Positions 1-13,320 of a DNA stretch of 37,865 nt are shown here, piece after piece. How positions within the stretch are numbered: position 1 is the first letter of the stretch; each line of letters begins with the position of its first letter. Below the pieces are notes generated by a model. That model was not told where the DNA came from. It was given only the letters and a program-made list of their open reading frames with translations, and searched no databases. The position numbers and the translations under genes were made by a program. Source of the stretch: a virus (lineage: Duplodnaviria; Heunggongvirae; Uroviricota; Caudoviricetes); the IMG/VR virus record IMGVR_UViG_2548876954_000011; one strand, 5' to 3'.

Positions 1-1032
1 TCAAAAACTTGCTATTGATGTTGGTAGTGTTGCCAGCGGATTAAACCGTAATGCAGTTTCCAGATGATCTGGTGCCAGATGTGCGTAACGCATAGTCATT
101 TTTATATCGTGGTGTCCGAGAATTTTTTGTAAGGCGAGAATGTTTCCACCCGACATCATGAAGTGCGCCGCAAACGTATGGCGCAGAACGTGTGTGAGTT
201 GACCGCGAGGGAGCACGATAGACGTTTTTTCCATCACGGATAAAAATCGAAAATAGCAGTCTGTGAAGAAATTGAACCCATCAAGCGCCATGATCTCTTC
301 GTAAAGCTCTTTACTGATAGGGATGCTTCTGTTTTTCTTCCCCTTCGTTCTTACAAAGGTAATTCGGTATTTGGTCACCTGTGAGCGGGTAAGATTTACG
401 GCTTCACGCCAGCGTGCGCCTGTGCTTAAGCATATCTTAACTACCAGTGCCAGAATTGGGTCCTGACGTTTGCAATCAGCCAGTAATTCAACAATCTGCT
501 CATGGGTAAGCCATGCCATCTCTTTTTCTGCGATGGTGAATTTTCGCATGTTCTCCAGTGGGTTCGGATACGACCATTCGCCCAGGCGGGATAGTTCGCT
601 AAAAACACTACTTAGATAGCTTTGCTCCAGGTTAATGGTGACCGGGCTTGCTCCTTTCTTCCATTTCTCGCTGAAGTAGATCTCTCCTGTCAGGCGTTTA
701 TCTCGATAGTGGGCAAACATTTTAGATGTGAGATCGGTTGCAAGGGGATTGCCCAGAGCGTCAACCATCAACAGCAGTTTGTCATAGACATGCTGGCCAG
801 CTGTCAGAGATTTACCATGTAGTTTGAACCATAGTTCAACCACGTCTTTCAGTGTTCGACGATCCACTGATTCGCCCAGCCAGGGCTTTGCTTCGGTTTC
901 TTCCATCGTGTGACGCTCAAAAGCCAGAGCTTCGCCTTTGGTGGCGAATTGTTTACGCACACGACGTCCGCTACGTCCGGCGGGGTAACATTCGCAAAGC
1001 CATTTTCCTGTGGTGAGTTTTCGTACTGCCAT
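1..1032 (-). CDS. int: Tyrosine site-specific integrase (P2/186 Int family)
   Basis: 343 aa; C-terminal catalytic region ...HVLRHTFAAHFMMSGGNILALQKILGHHDIKMTMRYAHL (R-H-R-Y type); stop codon is window positions 1-3; position next to the repressor as in 186. Confidence 0.9.
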   Translation of the reverse strand: MAVRKLTTGKWLCECYPAGRSGRRVRKQFATKGEALAFERHTMEETEAKPWLGESVDRRTLKDVVELWFKLHGKSLTAGQHVYDKLLLMVDALGNPLATDLTSKMFAHYRDKRLTGEIYFSEKWKKGASPVTINLEQSYLSSVFSELSRLGEWSYPNPLENMRKFTIAEKEMAWLTHEQIVELLADCKRQDPILALVVKICLSTGARWREAVNLTRSQVTKYRITFVRTKGKKNRSIPISKELYEEIMALDGFNFFTDCYFRFLSVMEKTSIVLPRGQLTHVLRHTFAAHFMMSGGNILALQKILGHHDIKMTMRYAHLAPDHLETALRFNPLATLPTSIASF

Positions 1033-1113: not shown

Positions 1114-2091
1114 TCACTTTTGGGTAACAATGTCATCATTTGCTGCTGATTTTTTATCTGCAAGTGTGCCTAGAATGTTAAATAAATTTGGAGGTGGCTG
1201 CGTTTTATCTGCGAATGCAGAATTAGCTGACATGTTCCAATCTTTAAACACATCAATAGCATCTTGTTTTGTCGCAGTTGAACCATAAATTTGTAAGAAG
1301 ACCTCACCAAACATTAGAGCGTGTTGTCTGTCTTTTCTTATGATTGCTTCATGTGTGTATTTTTTTGAATTGTTTAAACAAAAATAAGAAAGCCAAGAAA
1401 GTAATGCAACCCCAAGTAAGCCCCTAGTGAAATAATAAAAAAGTTCAATGGGGGTGGCGTCTTTTATATCTATTTTATAGAAAAATGTTAAAAAGGCGGC
1501 ACTTATAGATAATAATGATAAAAGTATTCCGGCTATCGCCCAATTGTAAGACATTGCAGTGAAATCCTTATCGTCCTGATGTAATTTTGCTTTGACACCC
1601 TGCACATATTCAGGAACTTTTTCGTCAATTTTATTTTGTTGAATTTTGCTTGAAAGTTTTTGGTTTTGAAGCTTTAACTCTTTGTTTTGGGCGTGTTGGA
1701 GTTTTAGCTGTGATGCTAGTTTTTCTTTACTGTCCATTGCAGTTAATAACTCTATCTGCAACTTGTTGAATTGGTCTAACTGCGAATTATGGCTTTTTTG
1801 AAACTCGCGTAGTTTATGTTCTAACTCATCAATTTTTAAAAGGTACTTATCTGCTTCACTGTTTTGCAATGATGTATGGTCAGGCATGAAGGACTCATAC
1901 ATATATTTTTTTTTAGAAAAATTTCGACTGTAAGCATCAAGCAGTATATCGAATTCATCAAACTCTAGAGAATCCAATAGGTTTTTCAAAGTATTATAGG
2001 TGTCATTAGATAAATGTGATTTTAATTCTCCTAATTTAATACTTCTAGACGTATATTTTTCACTATTACTTTTATAATCAGAACCACTCAT
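1114..2091 (-). CDS. Hypothetical coiled-coil protein with two predicted transmembrane helices; cargo gene inserted between repressor and integrase
   Basis: 325 aa ORF; Lys/Glu/Gln-rich heptad-like N-terminal half (…LQIELLTAMDSKEKLASQLKLQHAQNKELKLQNQKL…), hydrophobic segments AIAGILLSLLSISAAFLTFFY and GLLGVALLSWLSYFCL; visibly AT-rich compared with the phage backbone; same strand as repressor and int. Confidence 0.6.
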   Translation of the reverse strand: MSGSDYKSNSEKYTSRSIKLGELKSHLSNDTYNTLKNLLDSLEFDEFDILLDAYSRNFSKKKYMYESFMPDHTSLQNSEADKYLLKIDELEHKLREFQKSHNSQLDQFNKLQIELLTAMDSKEKLASQLKLQHAQNKELKLQNQKLSSKIQQNKIDEKVPEYVQGVKAKLHQDDKDFTAMSYNWAIAGILLSLLSISAAFLTFFYKIDIKDATPIELFYYFTRGLLGVALLSWLSYFCLNNSKKYTHEAIIRKDRQHALMFGEVFLQIYGSTATKQDAIDVFKDWNMSANSAFADKTQPPPNLFNILGTLADKKSAANDDIVTQK

Positions 2092-2103
2092 TCCAATATC
2101 CTT

Positions 2104-3048
2104 TTATAATTCTTCTATCAGAATAAAATTGCATTTTGCAATAACATCAATATCTGAAATTTTACATTCAAATGATAAATCATTGTCTGAAATTTTTAAT
2201 CTTCCTACAGGAATTCTAGTTAGGGTTCGAATGCTCACTTTCCCTTCTATTTCAACAATCCATTTACCATCTGTAATTTCATCGAATGATTGATTACATA
2301 GGTATGTTTTTTTTTCGGTGCTAACAATCAATGGTAATTGGATTGAGTCTGGTAGTAATGCTTTATCAAGCATATAGAAATTTGAATCAAATAGATTCCC
2401 GTCAGTAATTTTTTTGTGAGTAATAGCAATTACATCATTTCTTGCATCGTCAAACTTTGGGCCTTTACCAGTAGTTAGCCACATTAGTGAAGTACCCGTT
2501 TCGAGAGCGCACTTAATTATCCAGTCTGAAGGAAAAACATCACGCATATATCTTGTGGCTAATGTGCTTTTTGAAATACCTAAGTGATCAGCTAAGGCTT
2601 GGCGAGTCTTATAACCGTAAGCCCTAACAATTCGCTCTATTGCTTCCTTGCCACCCCGAGAATAATCAATGGTGTTTTCATTATCGAACTTTGGTTGTTT
2701 ATAGTGAACGTCATGATAAGAACCATCTTCGGAGTGTGTTTCAACATGCTGTTCTGGTGAAGGGGATGGCATTTGTTCGTCATCATCTGAACCAAATGCT
2801 AGCCATTTAATTGATGCTCCAGTTTCCATTGAGCAGATAACAACCCAATCTGCAGGAAATGTATCGCGGGCATATCTGTTAGCCATCGTGCTTTGGGAAA
2901 TACCTAGATGGTTACAGAATGCTTGGCGTGACTTGAAGCCATAAGCCATGAGTATCCGCTCGATTACTTTCTGACCACCGCGATTTTGTATGACAACGGC
3001 TTTCATATCGTCATCAATATGGCGAAATGTGAATTTTTGAGTTGACAT
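2104..3048 (-). CDS. CI-type immunity repressor candidate with two tandem CI-like HTH domains plus a C-terminal domain
   Basis: 314 aa; residues ~24-86 (GGQKVIERILMAYGFKSRQAFCNHLGISQSTMANRYARDTFPADWVVICSMETGASIKWLAFG) and ~132-194 (GGKEAIERIVRAYGYKTRQALADHLGISKSTLATRYMRDVFPSDWIIKCALETGTSLMWLTTG) are about 60% identical to each other and look like the phage CI-repressor N-terminal domain; divergent from the Apl/Cox-like gene, i.e. in the cI position of 186. Confidence 0.65.
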   Translation of the reverse strand: MSTQKFTFRHIDDDMKAVVIQNRGGQKVIERILMAYGFKSRQAFCNHLGISQSTMANRYARDTFPADWVVICSMETGASIKWLAFGSDDDEQMPSPSPEQHVETHSEDGSYHDVHYKQPKFDNENTIDYSRGGKEAIERIVRAYGYKTRQALADHLGISKSTLATRYMRDVFPSDWIIKCALETGTSLMWLTTGKGPKFDDARNDVIAITHKKITDGNLFDSNFYMLDKALLPDSIQLPLIVSTEKKTYLCNQSFDEITDGKWIVEIEGKVSIRTLTRIPVGRLKISDNDLSFECKISDIDVIAKCNFILIEEL

Positions 3049-3136
3049 ATTCTTTATGTGAACCTATTCTCCGTTTTGTGATGTTGTTATCACGATTAAA
3101 ACCAGCTCACCACAAGCTAAAAGGAGATGTTGCATC
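3049..3136. promoter_or_regulatory. Divergent lysis/lysogeny switch region (pL-like and pR-like promoters and operators expected)
   Basis: 88-bp intergenic region between the divergent repressor and Apl/Cox-like genes; AGGAG Shine-Dalgarno at 3122-3126 ten nt before the ATG at 3137. Individual operators were not resolved. Confidence 0.4.
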
Positions 3137-3358
3137 ATGACCCCTAACATTTCAATAACTCTGAATACGCCACATGTCACAATTGAGCGTTATAGCGAAC
3201 TTACTGGTCTTTCAATCGACACAATCAACGATATGCTGGCTGATGGCCGCATCCCTCGACATCGTCTCCGGAAGGACAAGAAAAGAGAAAAGGTAATGAT
3301 CAACCTTGCTGCTCTTACCGTTGATGCACTTACTGATTGCAATGTTGTATTCAACTAG
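3137..3358 (+). CDS. Small Apl/Cox-like excisionase or early regulator
   Basis: 73 aa basic protein, first gene of the rightward early operon, divergent from the repressor; family assigned from position only. Confidence 0.45.
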
Positions 3359-3390
3359 TTCCATTTTGGGATATGTCAGGGGTGTCGACC

Positions 3391-3900
3391 ATGTTTGATT
3401 ACCAAGTTTCCAAACATCCACATTTTGATGAAGCCTGTCGTGCATTCGCACTGCGCCACAATCTGGTGCAACTGGCAGAACGTGCAAGCATGAATGTGCA
3501 GATTCTGCGGAACAAGCTGAACCCAGCTCAACCTCATTTATTAACCGCACCAGAAATCTGGCTGCTTACCGATCTGACTGAAGATTCAACGCTGGTAGAT
3601 GGTTTTCTGGCACAGATTCATTGTCTGCCATGTGTACCGATTAATGAGGTGGCAAAAGAGAAACTGCCACATTACGTCATGAGTGCAACCGCAGAGATCG
3701 GGCGTGTTGCTGCAGGTGCGGTATCTGGCGATGTAAAAACCAGTGCCGGTCGTCGTGATGCCATCAGCAGCATTAATTCTGTAACACGACTGATGGCGCT
3801 GGCGGCTGTTTCATTGCAGGCCCGTTTACAGACTAACCCTGCGATGGCGAGTGCAGTTGATACTGTGACTGGCCTCGGTGCTTCATTCGGTTTGCTGTGA
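3391..3900 (+). CDS. 186 CII-like regulatory protein
   Basis: ATG at 3391 gives 169 aa ([49 protein letters not shown]…), which matches my recollection of the phage CII (CP76-type) family and the length of 186 CII; the ORF-track start at 3337 is in frame but probably upstream of the true start. Confidence 0.7.
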
Positions 3901-3907
3901 GGTGCTT

Positions 3908-4204
3908 ATGCTGACGAAAGAACCATCATTTGCATCGCTGCTGGTAAAACAAAGCCCGGCAATGCACTACGGTCACGGCTGGATCATGGGAGAGGATGGT
4001 AAACGCTGGCATCCATGTCATTCACAAGATGAATTGCTGTCTGAATTGACCACGAGAAAATGGAGAAAGTCCAAATGTATGCGGCAGAAAGTGAAGTGGT
4101 TTATCAGTTTCGTTACAGAGGGGAGAGTTATTCAGTACCTGAAGATGATTTGCTCTGTTGCTATCCGTCGTTGTCGGGCGATGGTAGCTACTTTTTCACG
4201 CTAA
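3908..4204 (+). CDS. Hypothetical early protein (extent uncertain)
   Basis: ATG at 3908 within the 3878-4204 ORF; N-terminal ~50 aa look protein-like, C-terminal part is W/C/R-rich and overlaps the better-looking 4060-4299 ORF in another frame. Confidence 0.3.
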   Translation: MLTKEPSFASLLVKQSPAMHYGHGWIMGEDGKRWHPCHSQDELLSELTTRKWRKSKCMRQKVKWFISFVTEGRVIQYLKMICSVAIRRCRAMVATFSR

Positions 4205-4299
4205 AGGATGGAACCTTTATACGTGGTGAAAAAGTACAAGAAGTGATGCGTATAAAGACATCACCTCTTGAATGTTATCGGCGAAGTATTTATCGGTAA
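4060..4299 (+). CDS. Hypothetical early protein
   Basis: 79 aa ORF with a balanced composition (MEKVQMYAAESEVVYQFRYRGESYSVPEDDLL…); position corresponds to fil/dhr-type small early genes of 186-like phages, homology not established. Confidence 0.4.
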   Translation: MEKVQMYAAESEVVYQFRYRGESYSVPEDDLLCCYPSLSGDGSYFFTLKDGTFIRGEKVQEVMRIKTSPLECYRRSIYR

Positions 4300-4538
4300 C
4301 GATCTATCAGTGTCTGTATCAGATGAGTGAATTCTTGTTGTTTAACCGAACCTAAAGGAAGTTTGTTTAATTCTTCGCGGAGGAGCTCAAAAAATGCAGA
4401 TTGATTTGCTGAGTCAGTTCGAAATAAGGAGTGGATCAGACCTGAAACAAGAATTCGTTGAACAGCAACCTCATCGCGAAGACTGGAGATCTCGTTTTCA
4501 AGTTGCTCTAAACGCTCTCTTTCAACCGGGTTCAACAT
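4290..4538 (-). CDS. Hypothetical small coiled-coil protein, antisense to the early operon
   Basis: 82 aa (MLNPVERERLEQLENEISSLRDEVAVQRILVSGLIHSL…); AGGAA-type Shine-Dalgarno about 8 nt upstream on the minus strand; AT-rich region. It overlaps a less protein-like plus-strand ORF (4394-4630). Confidence 0.4.
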   Translation of the reverse strand: MLNPVERERLEQLENEISSLRDEVAVQRILVSGLIHSLFRTDSANQSAFFELLREELNKLPLGSVKQQEFTHLIQTLIDRYR

Positions 4539-4619
4539 TGATGATTCCTTCTAGCTATCAATATGTTGGTAATGGATCATATCAAAAATTTTTTAGTAGA
4601 TGTGTTGTGGGATGCATAA

Positions 4620-5489: not shown

Positions 5490-5788
5490 CAAGGGCTGTG
5501 CGTATCCATCAATTAAAAATTGCACCTAAGTATTTCAACGCTGTGGTTGCAGGTCAAAAGACGGCTGAACTTCGTAAAGACGATCGTGGCTATAAAGTTG
5601 GTGATGTTCTTTCTCTTTGCGAATGGAAGCATGGCGTATTTACGGGTAGGGAATGGGCCGCTGTTATCTCTCATGTGCTTCCGGTTAATGACGTCATGGC
5701 AGTTTCAGAACAATGGGTGATGCTATCAATTCGCCCATTAACCCCATTAGAAGCTTTAGGATATGTTATTGCAGGAGGTGCTGTATGA
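5486..5788 (+). CDS. ASCH/DUF3850-like small protein
   Basis: ATG at 5486 preceded by GGAGG; 100 aa ([42 protein letters not shown]…); family recalled from memory. Confidence 0.5.
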
Positions 5789-6642
5789 GTACCATCCTGA
5801 AATGGGCGGGTAATAAAACTGCCATTATGTCCGAACTGAAAAAACATCTTCCTGCTGGCCCGCGACTGGTTGAACCTTTCGCGGGTTCCTGTGCTGTGAT
5901 GATGGAGACGGATTACCCCAGCTATCTTGTTGCGGATATTAATCCTGATTTAATCAACCTCTATAAAAAGGTTGCTGCTGATTGCGAGGCGTTTATATCT
6001 CGTGCCAGAGCTTTATTTGAGGAAGCAAACAGGGAGTTGGCTTATTACAACATAAGGCAGGAGTTTAATTACTCCACTGAAATTACTGATTTCATGAAAG
6101 CGGTATATTTCCTGTATCTCAATCGTCATGGTTACCGTGGGTTATGTCGTTATAACAAGAGCGGGCATTTCAACATTCCATACGGTAATTATAAAAATCC
6201 GTATTTCCCTGAAAAAGAAATTCGCGCATTTGCAGAGAAAGCCCAGCGAGCAACGTTTATCTGCGCCAGCTTTGATGAAACGCTGGCGATGCTGCAGGTG
6301 GGGGATGTGGTGTATTGCGATCCGCCTTATGACGGTACGTTTTCCGGCTATCACACTGACGGCTTCACTGAAGATGACCAGTATCACCTGGCATCTGTTC
6401 TTGAATATCGATCATCAGAAGGTCATCCAGTCATTGTTTCTAACAGTGACACATCCCTGATCCGTTCGCTGTATCGAAATTTCACTCACCACTACATCAA
6501 GGCAAAACGCAGCATCGGCGTGTCGGCTGGCGAGAGTAAATCTGCAACAGAAATCATCGCTGTTTCCGGGCCGCGCTGCTGGGTGGGATTTGATCCTTCG
6601 CGTGGCGTGGATAGTTCTGCCGTGTACGGAGTGCGTGCATGA
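5785..6642 (+). CDS. dam: DNA N6-adenine methyltransferase (Dam family)
   Basis: [23 protein letters not shown]…EPFAGSCAV (AdoMet motif) and [11 protein letters not shown] (DPPY catalytic motif); about 285 aa. Confidence 0.85.
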
Positions 6643-9205: not shown

Positions 9206-9394
9206 ATGCAGGACTATTTTTTGGAGTCTTTGAAGCTCCAGCGCATTGATTTTTTTCTTAAGCTTGTAGCGGCTAGTGAGTGTAGTGATGAAGAGAAGGG
9301 GCTGGCTCTGCAGTGGGTTTCTGAATTAACTGATGAACTCATGGCAAAAATCAGAACCCATGAATACAACCGCTCAATGGATGTCATCAGTTGA
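9206..9394 (+). CDS. Hypothetical small protein, first gene of the SOS-controlled module
   Basis: 62 aa; AGGAGG at 9196-9201 just upstream of the ATG. Confidence 0.5.
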   Translation: MQDYFLESLKLQRIDFFLKLVAASECSDEEKGLALQWVSELTDELMAKIRTHEYNRSMDVIS

Positions 9395-9405
9395 GGTGAC
9401 TTTTT

Positions 9406-9639
9406 ATGCGCATTGAAATAATGATCGATAAAGAGCAGAAGATTAGCCAGTCTACCCTGGACGCCCTTGAATACGAGCTTTACCGCAATCTGCGCCCCCT
9501 ATATCCAAAAACGGTAATTCGCATCCGCAAAGGTAGCTCTAACGGTGTGGAACTGACCGGACTGCAACTGGACGAAGAAAGGAAGCAAGTGATGAAAATT
9601 ATGCAGAAAGTGTGGGAAGACGACAGCTGGCTGCATTAA
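9406..9639 (+). CDS. DinI-family protein (186 Tum-like antirepressor candidate)
   Basis: 77 aa, MRIEIMIDKEQKISQSTLDALEYELYRNLRPLYPKTVIRIRKG…WEDDSWLH, resembling DinI (MRIEVTI…); sits downstream of a LexA box, as tum does in 186. Confidence 0.7.
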   Translation: MRIEIMIDKEQKISQSTLDALEYELYRNLRPLYPKTVIRIRKGSSNGVELTGLQLDEERKQVMKIMQKVWEDDSWLH

Positions 9640-10052: not shown

Positions 10053-11135
10053 ATGATAAACGTTACAAACGAAATGCTCATTGATGTTGTCAGTGATGCT
10101 CTTACCGGGAAGAGGGAAAGTCTCCTCATGCGGTTGCGGATTATGGCAAAAAAACTAAAAAAAGAATCTCCTGAATTAGCGGGTAAATTAGAAGATTTAC
10201 TTATTAATACAGGTGGCGCAATTGCAGTCGAAAGGGCTAATCCAGTTGTTCCTAAAATAACACCTGTTGATGCGGATACAAGACAAAAGCTGCTAGTTGA
10301 AACATATCCTGTGGTCATTGATGTTGAACCTGTTTGGCCAACAAAAACTGATGTTCAACTGAATCGATTTGTGGCTGAGTGGGAAATGAAAGAACGCCTT
10401 TATAAAGAAGGGTTGCATCCGTCCAAATCTCTTCTTATGGGAGGACCACCCGGTGTGGGGAAGACTTTGGCTGCAAAGTGGCTCGCTTTTAAACTCGATA
10501 TGCCATTGTTAACATTAGATCTCGCAAGTGTAATGAGTAGCTACTTGGGGAAAACGGGTAATAATATTAAGGCAGTCCTCAATTATGCTTCGTCATTCCC
10601 TTGTGTACTGCTTCTTGACGAATTTGATGCGATTGCTAAAAAAAGGGATGATGCAACAGATGTTGGAGAACTAAAAAGATTAGTTACAGTATTATTGCAA
10701 GCAATTGATGAATGGCCAAATACGTCTGTTCTTATAGCAGCAACTAACCATGCGGAGCTGCTTGATCCTGCTGCATGGAGAAGATTCGATCGAGTTATTG
10801 ATTTTGAATATCCAACACAAGACCTAATGAGAAGATATCTCTGTTCTAAAAATATTGGAGATAGCTTATCGTACTATATTGCTACAAAACTCGAAAAAGT
10901 TTCATATGCAGTTCTTGAGAGAGCTATAAATCAAGCTAAAAGAAATGCCATTATAGAAGATATTCCTTTAAGTTCAGCTTTAATTGATGAGTTGTTAGAT
11001 GGCGTGTCACTTGATGATGTTATAAAAAACATGTCAAACAACAATGTATCACAAAGAAAAATCGCTTTAGATTTGGGGATTTCAAGGTCACAAGTACGTA
11101 AGGTTTTGACGGTTGAGGATGAAGACAATGAATGA
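10053..11135 (+). CDS. AAA+ ATPase (IetA-like), first gene of the cargo cassette
   Basis: 360 aa; Walker A GGPPGVGKT (around 10440-10466), Walker B LLLDEFD (around 10610-10630); C-terminal HTH-like segment SQRKIALDLGISRSQVRKVL; AT-rich; stop overlaps the protease start (ATGAATGA). Confidence 0.85.
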   Translation: MINVTNEMLIDVVSDALTGKRESLLMRLRIMAKKLKKESPELAGKLEDLLINTGGAIAVERANPVVPKITPVDADTRQKLLVETYPVVIDVEPVWPTKTDVQLNRFVAEWEMKERLYKEGLHPSKSLLMGGPPGVGKTLAAKWLAFKLDMPLLTLDLASVMSSYLGKTGNNIKAVLNYASSFPCVLLLDEFDAIAKKRDDATDVGELKRLVTVLLQAIDEWPNTSVLIAATNHAELLDPAAWRRFDRVIDFEYPTQDLMRRYLCSKNIGDSLSYYIATKLEKVSYAVLERAINQAKRNAIIEDIPLSSALIDELLDGVSLDDVIKNMSNNNVSQRKIALDLGISRSQVRKVLTVEDEDNE

Positions 11136-13320
11136 TAAAAATATGCTTCTTGGCTATGGTGAAACACTAACTAACCCTGTTAAACTTAACAGAGGTGGAG
11201 GTGAAAAGAATAAACCTTACTCTTATTCAGAAAATAAACCAGTGATATCTGCTCAACTGGAAGAGTTGATTGAGGAAATTAATACCCTTCCATTGTTAGC
11301 AATGCCTGAAGGTAAGGCTGTAGCAAAATTTGTTTTGCATCCGGCATTCTTAGCAAAAAGTTATTTTCCAGTAAGTCTTTTTGAGCGATTTTCCCTAGAA
11401 AGCATAGGCAGTAAGGCTGTAAAAGTAAAACCTAGAAAAGATATTAAAAAAAGAGGGCGAAAAGAGGAATACACTACAGCGTGTATTTATGTTTCTGGCA
11501 AAAAAGAAAGTTTTCAATCATTCTTAGACTCTGTAAATCAAGATACCCTAACGAAAGGGCAGCAAAATGATTTTGTCACCTTAGAAAATATTTCAATACT
11601 GGAAGTTTCAGATAAAGTAAAAACGATTAATAGCAATGAAGTTATGAGTATTGAGGTCGCCTTACATACTCCTGATACAAGTTCCTCTATTGTCGATAGT
11701 TTTGAAGTTTTTGCTTCGCAAAATGGTGCTGTTATAGATAAGGCAAGAAGTATAAAGGTTAAGGGGCTAACCTTTATGCCTATTAAGGCTAGTAAAGATG
11801 TAGCTTTAAAAGTTGCAGAGTTTTCATTTCTCAGGACTTTGAGAGAACTTCCTGAATTAAGGCTAAGTGAGCCTGTTATATCACGTTCTGTGATTCAAAC
11901 ATCTAACCTTAGTTTACCATCTGAAGGAGCGGTAAACCCACATATAAAGGTTGCCATATTCGATGGTGGATTGGGGATCGATGATTTCAATCCTTGGGTA
12001 ACAGAGTACACTTTCAACGGTAATGCTAGTACTAATGCAAAACTTCTTTCTCATGGACAAGATGTCACCTCTACTGTGTTATTTGGTGTTCTTGGCTCTG
12101 AAACGGAAAAATTAAGTGTTCCTTATTGTAATATTGACCATTATCGTGTACTGGATTCCAATGTTAATAACTCAGATGTCGATCTTTTTGACGTTCTGAT
12201 CCGTATTAAAAGTGTATTAGAACAAAAAAAATATGATTATATCAATCTGAGCTTAGGACCTAGATTACCTGTTGATGACGATGACGTGCATGTGTGGACC
12301 TCAACTCTTGAGGAGATACTTGCATCAGGAGAAACACTTTGTACTGTCGCGGTTGGAAATGATGGTCAGCTGCCTGCCAAGTTAAATCGAATTCAACCAC
12401 CTGCTGATTTAGTTAATGGTCTGTCAGTAGGTGCAGCAACCTCTTTATCTGATAGTTGGGAAAGATGTTCTTACAGTTGTATTGGTCCTGGACGAAGCCC
12501 TGGCTTTGTGAAGCCTGATGGAGTTGCATTTGGAGGACATTCTGATGAGCCATTCCAGGTATACAGCCCTATGGTTAATGGTCTTGCCCGCACTGCGGGG
12601 ACTAGCTTTTCAGCTCCATTAGTCCTGAGGCAAGCAATCGCGTTAAGTGCTTCTCTAAATTACAACATTACACCACTTACGGCTAAAGCTCTGCTTATAC
12701 ATCATGCGGAGAGCAATAATATCAATCGTGCTGAAGTTGGTTGGGGACGATTTCCTCATGATCTTAGTGAAGTAATATTTTGTGATGATGATGAAGTTAA
12801 AGTTATATATCAAGGTACTTTAAAACCATCACAACACATGCGAGCACCTATTCCGTTTCCAGATGTACCTATGCGTGGATGTGTAAATTTAAGAGCGACA
12901 TTCTGCTTTTCCAGTCCTGTAGATGCGGAACATCCTTTGAATTATACAAGAAGCGGTCTAGAAGTAACCATGAGAAAAGGTGTTTCAGATAGTTCCGGGT
13001 TAACGTTTCCTCTTTTTAATCTAAAAAATGTTTATGCAGATGAAAATGAGCAACGTGTTGATGCACATAAATGGGAGACTACGTTAAGAAGTGAACACAA
13101 ATTTAAACCGAATGAGCTGACAAACCCATGCTTTGATATTATCTACTATGGTAGAGACTGTGGTATGCCTATTGATGTTGACGAGTTAGAAGAACTACCA
13201 TATGTTCTTGTCGTGACTTTATCTGCTGAAGAAATGCCGGATTTATATAACCTAATTAGGCAGAAATATCAAACCTTACAGCCTATACAAGTTCAACAGC
13301 AAATTATGTTACGTACTTAA
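11128..13320 (+). CDS. Subtilisin-like serine protease (peptidase S8 family, IetS-like), probably cytoplasmic
   Basis: 730 aa from the ATG at 11128 (GAGGA about 9 nt upstream; in-frame alternatives at 11113 and 11119); S8 catalytic motifs in the right order: D in VAIFDGGLG (codon 11962-11964), H in LSHGQDV (12052-12054), oxyanion N in AVGNDGQ, S in AGTSFSAP (12604-12606); no N-terminal signal peptide evident. Confidence 0.85.
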   Translation: MNDKNMLLGYGETLTNPVKLNRGGGEKNKPYSYSENKPVISAQLEELIEEINTLPLLAMPEGKAVAKFVLHPAFLAKSYFPVSLFERFSLESIGSKAVKVKPRKDIKKRGRKEEYTTACIYVSGKKESFQSFLDSVNQDTLTKGQQNDFVTLENISILEVSDKVKTINSNEVMSIEVALHTPDTSSSIVDSFEVFASQNGAVIDKARSIKVKGLTFMPIKASKDVALKVAEFSFLRTLRELPELRLSEPVISRSVIQTSNLSLPSEGAVNPHIKVAIFDGGLGIDDFNPWVTEYTFNGNASTNAKLLSHGQDVTSTVLFGVLGSETEKLSVPYCNIDHYRVLDSNVNNSDVDLFDVLIRIKSVLEQKKYDYINLSLGPRLPVDDDDVHVWTSTLEEILASGETLCTVAVGNDGQLPAKLNRIQPPADLVNGLSVGAATSLSDSWERCSYSCIGPGRSPGFVKPDGVAFGGHSDEPFQVYSPMVNGLARTAGTSFSAPLVLRQAIALSASLNYNITPLTAKALLIHHAESNNINRAEVGWGRFPHDLSEVIFCDDDEVKVIYQGTLKPSQHMRAPIPFPDVPMRGCVNLRATFCFSSPVDAEHPLNYTRSGLEVTMRKGVSDSSGLTFPLFNLKNVYADENEQRVDAHKWETTLRSEHKFKPNELTNPCFDIIYYGRDCGMPIDVDELEELPYVLVVTLSAEEMPDLYNLIRQKYQTLQPIQVQQQIMLRT

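Follow-up and report, generated by a model that had tools for sequence, protein, structure and literature searches.

The CI immunity repressor of coliphage 186 assembles as a seven-dimer wheel that wraps and loops DNA. Three operators for this wheel lie at the promoter pR, and the distal sites FL and FR, about 300 bp away, compete for positions on the wheel, loop to it, aid the repression of pR and relieve pL (PMC3675496). The CI proteins of PsP3 and PhiECO3 (the CFT073 prophage) were read as having 'a longer C-terminal domain' (Nilsson et al. 2011; PMC3448106). Here we describe the CI repressor encoded at positions 2104-3048 (minus strand) of a 37,865-nucleotide stretch of Caudoviricetes DNA (IMG/VR record IMGVR_UViG_2548876954_000011; the whole stretch is called the window below). 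It carries two DNA-binding heads, D1 and D2, in one chain, and the layout looks like a head-to-tail, in-frame fusion, in which an N-terminal domain (NTD) module of a CI class of 208 amino acids was joined onto a complete CI of a 199-residue class. The layout is common in the databases, although the literature searched yielded no study of it.

With 186 CI (2FJR, 2FKD) the protein shares heads of the PF07022 family, the fold of the C-terminal domain (CTD), the slot between int and apl-cII, a set of adjacent operators at pR and, likely, induction by a Tum-type antirepressor and not by self-cleavage. It differs in having two heads and a linker predicted to be disordered, whereas 186 CI (192 amino acids) has one head per subunit, and the two proteins are only about 30-35% identical in sequence. 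The open reading frame (ORF) starts with ATG and encodes 314 amino acids, unlike the canonical one-head layout of about 190-210. Pfam finds PF07022 (Phage_CI_repr) twice, with 192 bits in total against a cut-off of 22, and a single PF16452 (Phage_CI_C) domain at residues 209-306 (110 bits). A purpose-built NTD hidden Markov model (HMM) gives 137.4 bits for D1 (residues 21-89; 2782-2988, minus strand; recognition helix SQSTMANRYARD) and 136.2 bits for D2 (residues 129-197; 2458-2664, minus strand; recognition helix SKSTLATRYMRD). The two halves share 39 of 73 residues (BLASTP expectation value (E) 3e-31), and residues 24-86 are identical to residues 132-194 at 37 of 63 positions (59%).

A preliminary description of the gene had proposed two CI-type helix-turn-helix domains in one chain, separated by an acidic linker with Pro and Ser and followed by a C-terminal domain of some 120 residues, and this architecture was borne out throughout, including the identity of the second copy as a helix-turn-helix domain, which matches Phage_CI_repr over its full length. 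The linker is 39-45 amino acids long depending on where its boundaries are drawn (residues 90-128, 2665-2781 on the minus strand, or residues 87-131); the 45 residues of the wider definition include 12 acidic (D/E) and 3 basic (K/R) ones, 4 Pro and 6 Ser, and both length and sequence vary among relatives. In the AlphaFold2 monomer model D1, D2 and the CTD are confident, the predicted local distance difference test score falls below 50 at residues 89-128, no packing of D1 on D2 is seen and the predicted template modelling score (pTM) is 0.39, for which reason no fixed arrangement of the two heads is predicted. Ahead of D1 lies an N-terminal arm (residues 1-20; 2989-3048, minus strand), which aligns with the arm of a 208-residue single-head CI (P0070) and the DNA of which doubles as the carrier of an operator and of the -35 hexamer of pR (see below). 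The CTD (residues 198-314; 2107-2457, minus strand; GC content 0.29) comprises 117 residues and is an oligomerisation domain of the 186 CI type, with a template modelling score of 0.90 and a root-mean-square deviation of 1.5 Å to the CTD of 186 CI (2FKD; sequence E 3e-9).

Among solved structures, phage 186 CI is also the closest to the whole protein by sequence (2FJR, E 6e-26). The self-cleaving repressors of the lambda CI and LexA type form a different group: Pfam gave no Peptidase_S24 match in the 314 residues, and LexA and lambda CI appeared only as remote fold matches of the CTD (E 6e-6 or weaker, 6-13% identity). Likewise, a protein of 314 amino acids with CI-type domains does not resemble the C-type repressor of P2, which has about 99 amino acids, binds direct repeats and is encoded beside cox.

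D2 looks like a functional head, as it scores on a par with D1 and has a nearly invariant helix. Mean identity among the D2 copies is 75%, against 72% among the D1 copies. That one of the heads is no practical DNA binder at all, D2 being a spacer for the packing of the CTD or the wheel, or D1 a Tum decoy or sensor that tunes induction, seems to us very improbable. The prophage does encode TumA-like and DinI-like proteins, and the NTDs pack on each other in the crystal of the 186 CI dimer (PMC3675496), but both recognition helices are near-invariant across diverged homologues and both copies score as full-length Phage_CI_repr domains.

The gene occupies the canonical cI slot. The order int - cargo gene - cI, facing apl - cII - fil and followed further on by A - tumA/dinI, matches the annotated map of coliphage 186, and a 98% identical, complete prophage of E. 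coli Ec1120, located between ybjL and rcdA, has one annotated CI and no other annotated repressor gene. Because of its domains, its closest structure, this gene order and the single CI annotated in Ec1120, we conclude that 2104-3048 is, as far as can be read from the DNA, the cI immunity repressor gene of an intact-looking 186/Fels-2-like (Peduoviridae) prophage of E. coli, which upholds its earlier naming as an immunity-repressor candidate.

The two heads have different relatives. Of the 123 homologues collected, 47 have two heads. In a tree of all heads, 37 of the 46 D1 copies fall into one clade with those of the 208-residue single-head CIs; the D2 copies are found at various places among single-head CIs of 187-199 amino acids. 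The split that unites the main D1 clade with the 208-residue class has a neighbour-joining bootstrap support of 92%. Residues 1-86 (arm and D1) are 84% identical to the 208-residue CI P0070 from Salmonella, and residues ~120-314 (D2 and CTD) are 79% identical to P0029, a complete CI of 199 amino acids (78% between D2 and its NTD, 84% between the CTDs). The preliminary description had taken the two heads for a tandem duplication within the gene. A recent duplication in place, yielding two equivalent heads and an altered half-site geometry, would account for their clear homology (59%, E 3e-31), but we give it hardly any weight: D1 and D2 are each closer to a different single-head lineage than to one another, the layout is common to about 45 diverged clusters, and the operators are arranged as in single-head relatives. 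Moreover, third-codon-position identity between D1 and D2 is 0.48, which falls inside the range of 0.23-0.65 of other NTD comparisons, so that a recent duplication is not indicated.

A fusion onto a whole cI gene is the best explanation of two further observations. First, in blastn comparisons the double-headed genes are homologous to cI genes of the 199-residue type from codon 4-5 of the latter onward. Second, in one relative (L102) the linker still reads TTGACAT, corresponding to the old pR -35 hexamer plus start codon, and continues with Met-Ser-Ile-Leu-Lys-Ala-Pro-Asn-Glu, the old N-terminus. The idea that the linker DNA at large is a translated copy of the region upstream of a 199-class cI was given up, as homology in the clade starts only at codon 4-5 and L102 alone keeps the -35 and the start. 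The pR operators, which overlap the first codons of the D1 module, would have arrived together with it.

The D1 of L102 belongs to yet another head lineage, and D1 copies of other lineages were found in the P0048/P0051, P0049/P0050 and P0030 groups. These groups and the PsP3 family (see below) suggest that fusion happened more than once; with D1 drawn from at least three NTD lineages, and with PsP3-type CIs as a separate family, the layout appears to have arisen repeatedly. The reverse course, in which the 208-residue class derives from double-headed genes by loss of D2, is possible as well. Whichever the direction of change, the comparisons point to heads that are old and different.

The 3' part of the gene has a history of its own. 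Double-headed proteins have polyphyletic CTDs, which intermingle with those of single-head CIs, with identities across the two layouts of 84% (the window and P0029; P0008 and P0036) and 91% (P0034 and P0091). In an alignment of the window with L008, the P0029-encoding contig, DNA identity rises from 0.45-0.55 over 2720-2600 to 0.82-0.92 over 2540-2420 and to 0.90-0.97 from the end of the CTD until 270 nt into the cargo gene, which places a recombination breakpoint with a P0029-like locus inside D2, at about 2540-2600. The ORF that follows P0029 in L008 is the same cargo gene. The jump in identity and a matching boundary in GC content (0.44 in D1 and D2, 0.29 in the CTD, 0.33 in the cargo gene) indicate that one block, made up of the 3' part of D2, the CTD and the cargo gene, was swapped with a single-head phage. 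The window thus seems to have inherited the double-headed layout, and the exchange of the D2-CTD-cargo part, by recombination inside a conserved head, would have come later. The preliminary description had called the gene AT-rich and had supposed that it was acquired together with the cargo gene. The former is true of the CTD and the cargo gene but not of the heads, and the latter applies to the CTD-cargo block with its 90-97% DNA identity to L008 but not to the rest of cI.

The cargo gene itself (1114-2091, minus strand; 325 amino acids; phrog_2628, function unknown) encodes a protein with an N-terminal coiled coil, membrane segments and a hydrophobic, conserved C-terminal half. It lies in one transcription unit with cI and is inherited jointly with the CTD part of that gene. 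The cargo protein of CFT073 is related to it (54% identity over the C-terminal half), that of Klebsiella phage 4LV2017 is not, and PADLOC gave no match for either the cargo gene or cI. As unrelated genes take its place in 4LV2017, PsP3, L004 and L087, the slot between cI and int can be regarded as a variable locus that is expressed in lysogens.

Double-headed CIs turned out to be far from an exception. A homologue search of 5.8 billion proteins yielded 650 relatives, and among the best 120 of these, for which layouts were scored, about 45 clusters at 90% identity have two heads and 292-330 amino acids, the others having a single head and 186-210 amino acids. Their hosts include E. coli, Salmonella, Klebsiella, Enterobacter, Citrobacter, Kosakonia and Edwardsiella, and the layout also occurs in deposited phages, among them 4LV2017 and numerous prophage isolates of Klebsiella. 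The CIs of CFT073 (PhiECO3) and 4LV2017 fall in the same clade as that of the window, with 56-58% identity overall, D1 copies that are 90-96% identical and the same pR layout, but with different D2-CTD modules and cargo genes. For the P2-like prophage of CFT073 (L001 2603-3472, C_RS04425) RefSeq gives a CI of 289 amino acids, which is 19 codons short: an in-frame ATG upstream leads to 308 amino acids with the conserved MST..TFRH arm and a start that overlaps TTGACAT as in all relatives, so that the annotated start is probably wrong.

The CI of PsP3 (NP_958086, 286 amino acids; L009 3219-4079, NC_005340), the cI product of an isolated 186-like phage, likewise combines two PF07022 heads with one PF16452 CTD. 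Its heads are only 33-47% identical to those of the window, its linker has about 25 amino acids and its helices read SGWVQRD and STWVRRD. The best 120 of its relatives (P0121-P0240) are all double-headed and form a separate lineage of at least 120 clusters, one of which was found on 737 contigs, mostly of Klebsiella. Within this family, sequences of head 1 vary (mean identity 65%) and those of head 2 are conserved (89%). What had been described as a departure from the normal one-head CI is therefore a layout shared by about 45 clusters, CFT073, 4LV2017 and the PsP3-type family, and the double-headed CI is a widespread subfamily without a name in the literature that we searched. No description of tandem heads in a 186-type CI was found in that literature, where most subscription journals fell outside coverage, nor did the same search bring up a functional study of the two heads of PsP3 CI.

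Two loci have yet another arrangement. In L087 (1875-3424) and L100, a single-head cI of 191 amino acids lies beside apl and is followed, 50 nt downstream, by a double-headed cI of 307 amino acids with a mutated O1 operator, next to which lies a gene for a KAP-like NTPase of 505 amino acids. The double-headed protein would here be an extra product of the lysogenic operon, separate from the switch repressor. Such a tandem could be an intermediate towards fusions, or a case of a repressor carried as cargo; because the double-headed cI is not the switch repressor in these loci, the arrangement fits repression of other phages.

We also found a set of candidate operators at pR. The promoter (3042-3070, plus strand) consists of TTGACA (3042-3047), a spacer of 17 nt and TATTCT (3065-3070), agrees with the sigma-70 consensus at 10 of 12 positions and overlaps the cI start codon on the opposite strand with its -35 hexamer; it is conserved in relatives and has the same relative position as the annotated pR of phage 186. 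Candidate operator O1 (TGGCGAAATGTGAAT, 3020-3034) lies within cI codons 5-10, is kept in double-headed loci and in those of the 208-residue class and is under synonymous constraint; O2 (ATTCTTTATGTGAAC, 3049-3063) lies between -35 and -10, and O3 (TCTCCGTTTTGTGATG, 3068-3083) directly past -10. The three sites share the form T(C/G)(T/G)C(C/G/T)-N4-GTGA(A/T) and cover -35, -10 and +1 of pR. The GTGA of O3 pairs in addition with TCAC at 3090-3093 as the palindrome GTGATGTTGTTATCAC (3078-3093), the spacing of which ranges from N7 to N9 among relatives. Operators had been expected at 3049-3136, and O2 and O3 indeed lie there, but O1 is inside the first codons of cI and the -35 hexamer overlaps its start codon. 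Synonymous choice, followed along the whole gene, is nearly fixed at cI codons 2-10 and 16 in 27 diverged double-headed genes (mean amino acid identity 53%), as expected for an operator and promoter embedded in coding DNA.

The whole double-headed clade and the 208-residue single-head loci (e.g. L004, with TGGCGTAATGTGAT, TGGCGTTTTGTGAT and CTCCGTTGTGTGAA) share these three sites and their positions, at which 199-residue single-head loci have other sequences (TCTCATTTGGGTAC, TCTCTTATGCGATC and TTCCCATTTGGGGAC), indicating that the pR operators go with D1. Tabulating the recognition helices and pR sites of about 150 loci pairs the helix SQSTMANRYARD of D1 with GTGA(A/T) sites, SKSTLANRY(L/M)RD with GGG(T/G)AC-type sites and the helix SKSTLATRYMRD of the window's D2, in single-head phages, with GTGAAC/TTCAC-type sites. 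The change in half-site geometry that the preliminary description had foreseen did not materialise: no doubled or respaced half-sites were found at pR, where the layout equals that of single-head relatives.

The asymmetry of the pR sites raises the question whether D1 and D2 of one chain act as a single-chain pseudo-dimer, each taking one of the unequal half-sites (TSKCS on the left, GTGAW on the right) of each operator, in the manner of engineered single-chain 434 repressors. A linker of about 40 residues can span one site, and subclades with different D2 helices (ATRYM or ANRY) have different O2 sequences as well. Nevertheless, single-head CIs of 208 amino acids have the same three asymmetric sites, so that the asymmetry needs no second kind of head, and the AlphaFold2 model shows no packing between D1 and D2. 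The co-variation of O2 with the D2 helix corresponds to one split in the tree, with similar O2 sequences in single-head loci, and was kept only as a lead. We consider such a pseudo-dimer rather improbable.

In most relatives a GATC is found directly ahead of the pR -10 hexamer (G(C/T)GATCCTATTCT), and these phages encode a Dam-type methylase (5713-6642 in the window, to the right of cII). The subclade of the window has GTGAACC before the -10 (3058-3070) and hence no GATC. Between apl and cII, TTCCATTTTGGGAT (3359-3372) was considered as an FR-like operator of the D2 lineage and rejected, because an element occurs there whatever the CI type: TAGTTCCATTTTGGGATA (3356-3375) abuts the apl stop codon, and its core GTTC(C/G)AT(T/A)TTG(G/A/C)G is conserved in nearly all 186-like loci. 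This element may more likely belong to the pE/cII promoter region.

A possible target for D2 lies inside cI itself. The N-terminal arm of D2 (K-F/N/S-P-I/N-E) is encoded, in the majority of double-headed cI genes, by codons that spell TCTCA(A/T)TTGGG(A/T)AC, which we interpret as a remnant of O1 of the ancestral 199-residue-type cI. In the window this internal site is TTTTCATTATCGAAC (2675-2689), a diverged form and a candidate distal, FL-like operator. It lies about 370 bp from pR; FL of 186 lies about 285 bp from pR, in the codons of the NTD-CTD linker of the annotated cI. Among distant pairs of genes, identical residues use the same codon at a frequency of 0.76 in the D2 arm, against 0.39 within D2, a comparison that is measurable only in the subset with P(I/N)(E/G), since in the full clade the residues differ and the test is uninformative. 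The excess hints at constraint on the DNA itself. The TTTTCATTATCGAAC form is kept in six relatives, all with the ATRYM form of the D2 helix, an association that is a lead and not proof because it goes back to one evolutionary event. An internal transcript for D2 and the CTD alone was also considered; the promoter-like match in the linker (2708-2680, minus strand; TTCACT, 17 nt, GATAAT) belongs to a class of matches at chance-level numbers, and D2 has no in-frame start codon ahead of it.

Taken together, we lean, if only somewhat, towards a double-headed repressor of the 186 type that originated by fusion, with D1 acting at pR and D2 providing a second tier of DNA binding. The CTD would dimerise and assemble a 186-like wheel, in which D2 takes the normal position of the head and each subunit carries its D1 on a tether of about 40 residues. 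Pairs of D1 would bind O1-O3 over -35, -10 and +1 of pR and so switch off apl, cII and replication, and pairs of D2 would form a second, separate set of DNA contacts. The best candidate for these is the internal remnant operator some 370 bp from pR, which could act by looping as FL does but without competing for heads; alternatively, D2 could bind operators of heteroimmune phages. Induction would proceed via the Tum/DinI-type antirepressor encoded at 9206-9639, under LexA-type control, and not by self-cleavage.

Several points weigh against this model. It supposes a wheel that carries 28 heads, the formation of which we infer only by analogy with 186, and the AlphaFold2 model gives D1 and D2 no fixed mutual placement (pTM 0.39). 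All operator assignments are derived by comparing sequences, and the pR sites are spaced by 29 and 20 bp, unlike the regular two turns between the TCTCAATTGGGAGA-type sites of 186. D2 might bind the pR sites of D1, because single-head CIs with the exact helix of D2 use GTGAAC-type sites. Scans of the entire window with 186 B-type (TTCAC N5 GTGAA), pR-type (TSKCS N4 GTGAW) and 199-class patterns gave counts equal to those in shuffled sequence, and therefore no extra operator set was found in the window. As to the internal site, it lies in coding DNA, the synonymous test there concerns five codons in sequence pairs that are not independent, and assignment of the D2 target to 2675-2689 is uncertain because the site has diverged to TTTTCATTATCGAAC in the window's own subclade.

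A different role for D2 would be dual immunity, in which D1 runs the phage's own switch and D2, having no essential target in its own genome, is kept because it represses incoming phages with operators of the 199-residue or the ATRYM class; a single repressor would thereby provide the lysogen with two immunity specificities. D2 and the CTD do amount to a complete CI from another lineage that is highly conserved, only D1-type operators are present at pR, L087 and L100 carry the double-headed cI as a second, cargo-like repressor gene, and double-headed layouts with D1 from different lineages seem to have had several origins. However, occasional superinfection usually exerts only weak selection, and yet conservation of D2 matches that of D1; moreover, the operator-like site of the D2 lineage that is retained within the gene, with excess synonymous conservation, suggests a target in cis. 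We regard dual immunity as unlikely.

Covalently linked helix-turn-helix heads are known from engineered single-chain 434 repressors, which are laboratory constructs. An engineered lambda-186 hybrid (7JVT) demonstrates that the 186 CTD tolerates a foreign head; the hybrid swaps the head, whereas the CI of the window adds a second one. By analogy, the latter looks like a natural version of such engineered module joining. A mycobacteriophage immunity repressor also places two domains of one chain on DNA, but it has an unrelated fold, acts as a monomer on one asymmetric stoperator site and has a second domain that is no copy of the first (PMC9283540).

The remaining genes of the locus are those of a 186-like phage. 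A tyrosine integrase (int) is encoded at 1-1032 (minus strand). On the plus strand, the first gene of the pR operon (3137-3358) encodes an apl/cox-like excisionase and switch repressor (phrog_575, Cox-like, E 1e-31), and it is followed by cII (3391-3900; Phage_CP76, PF06892, E 1e-40), the lysogeny-establishment activator of 169 amino acids, for which the ATG at 3391 is the start as in homologues. Downstream of the replication gene A, as tumA and tumB in PsP3, lie ORFs for a TumA-like protein of 62 amino acids (9206-9394, plus strand) and a DinI-like protein of 77 amino acids (9406-9639, plus strand), a pair that probably constitutes an SOS-controlled antirepressor module.

Two other regions of the prophage drew our attention. 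An anti-phage defence pair, IetA (an AAA ATPase, E 7e-84) and IetS (an S8 protease, E 2e-48), is encoded at 10053-13320 (plus strand), in a variable region between tum/dinI and the portal gene where Ec1120 has a TIR-domain gene instead. The region 4060-4600, between fil and a DUF5347 gene, has a low GC content (0.38-0.41) and holds an ORF of 82 amino acids with a coiled-coil-like sequence (4290-4538, minus strand) and one of 79 amino acids on the plus strand; as fil and the DUF5347 gene overlap in Ec1120, the region could represent the insertion of a small moron.

The 186 CI wheel is among the best-studied alternatives to the lambda switch, and competition of pR, pL, FL and FR for its seven head pairs accounts for its behaviour. 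If the widespread double-headed CIs do form wheels with fourteen head pairs of two kinds, they would put this model to a direct test, showing whether a second tier abolishes the competition, adds a class of operators or adds an immunity specificity. The comparisons also offer a sequence view of how immunity modules (head plus operators, CTD and cargo) are shuffled in the Peduoviridae of E. coli, Klebsiella, Salmonella and Enterobacter. As annotation labels all these proteins 'phage repressor protein CI', prediction of immunity groups from whole-protein identity is misleading for such mosaics. Only tentatively do we suggest that double-headed CIs in general are natural immunity proteins of two specificities, evolved recurrently, in which the second head serves private looping or the repression of heteroimmune phages. 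If true, this would represent a general and so far unrecognised way for 186-like phages to evolve their immunity and to broaden it.

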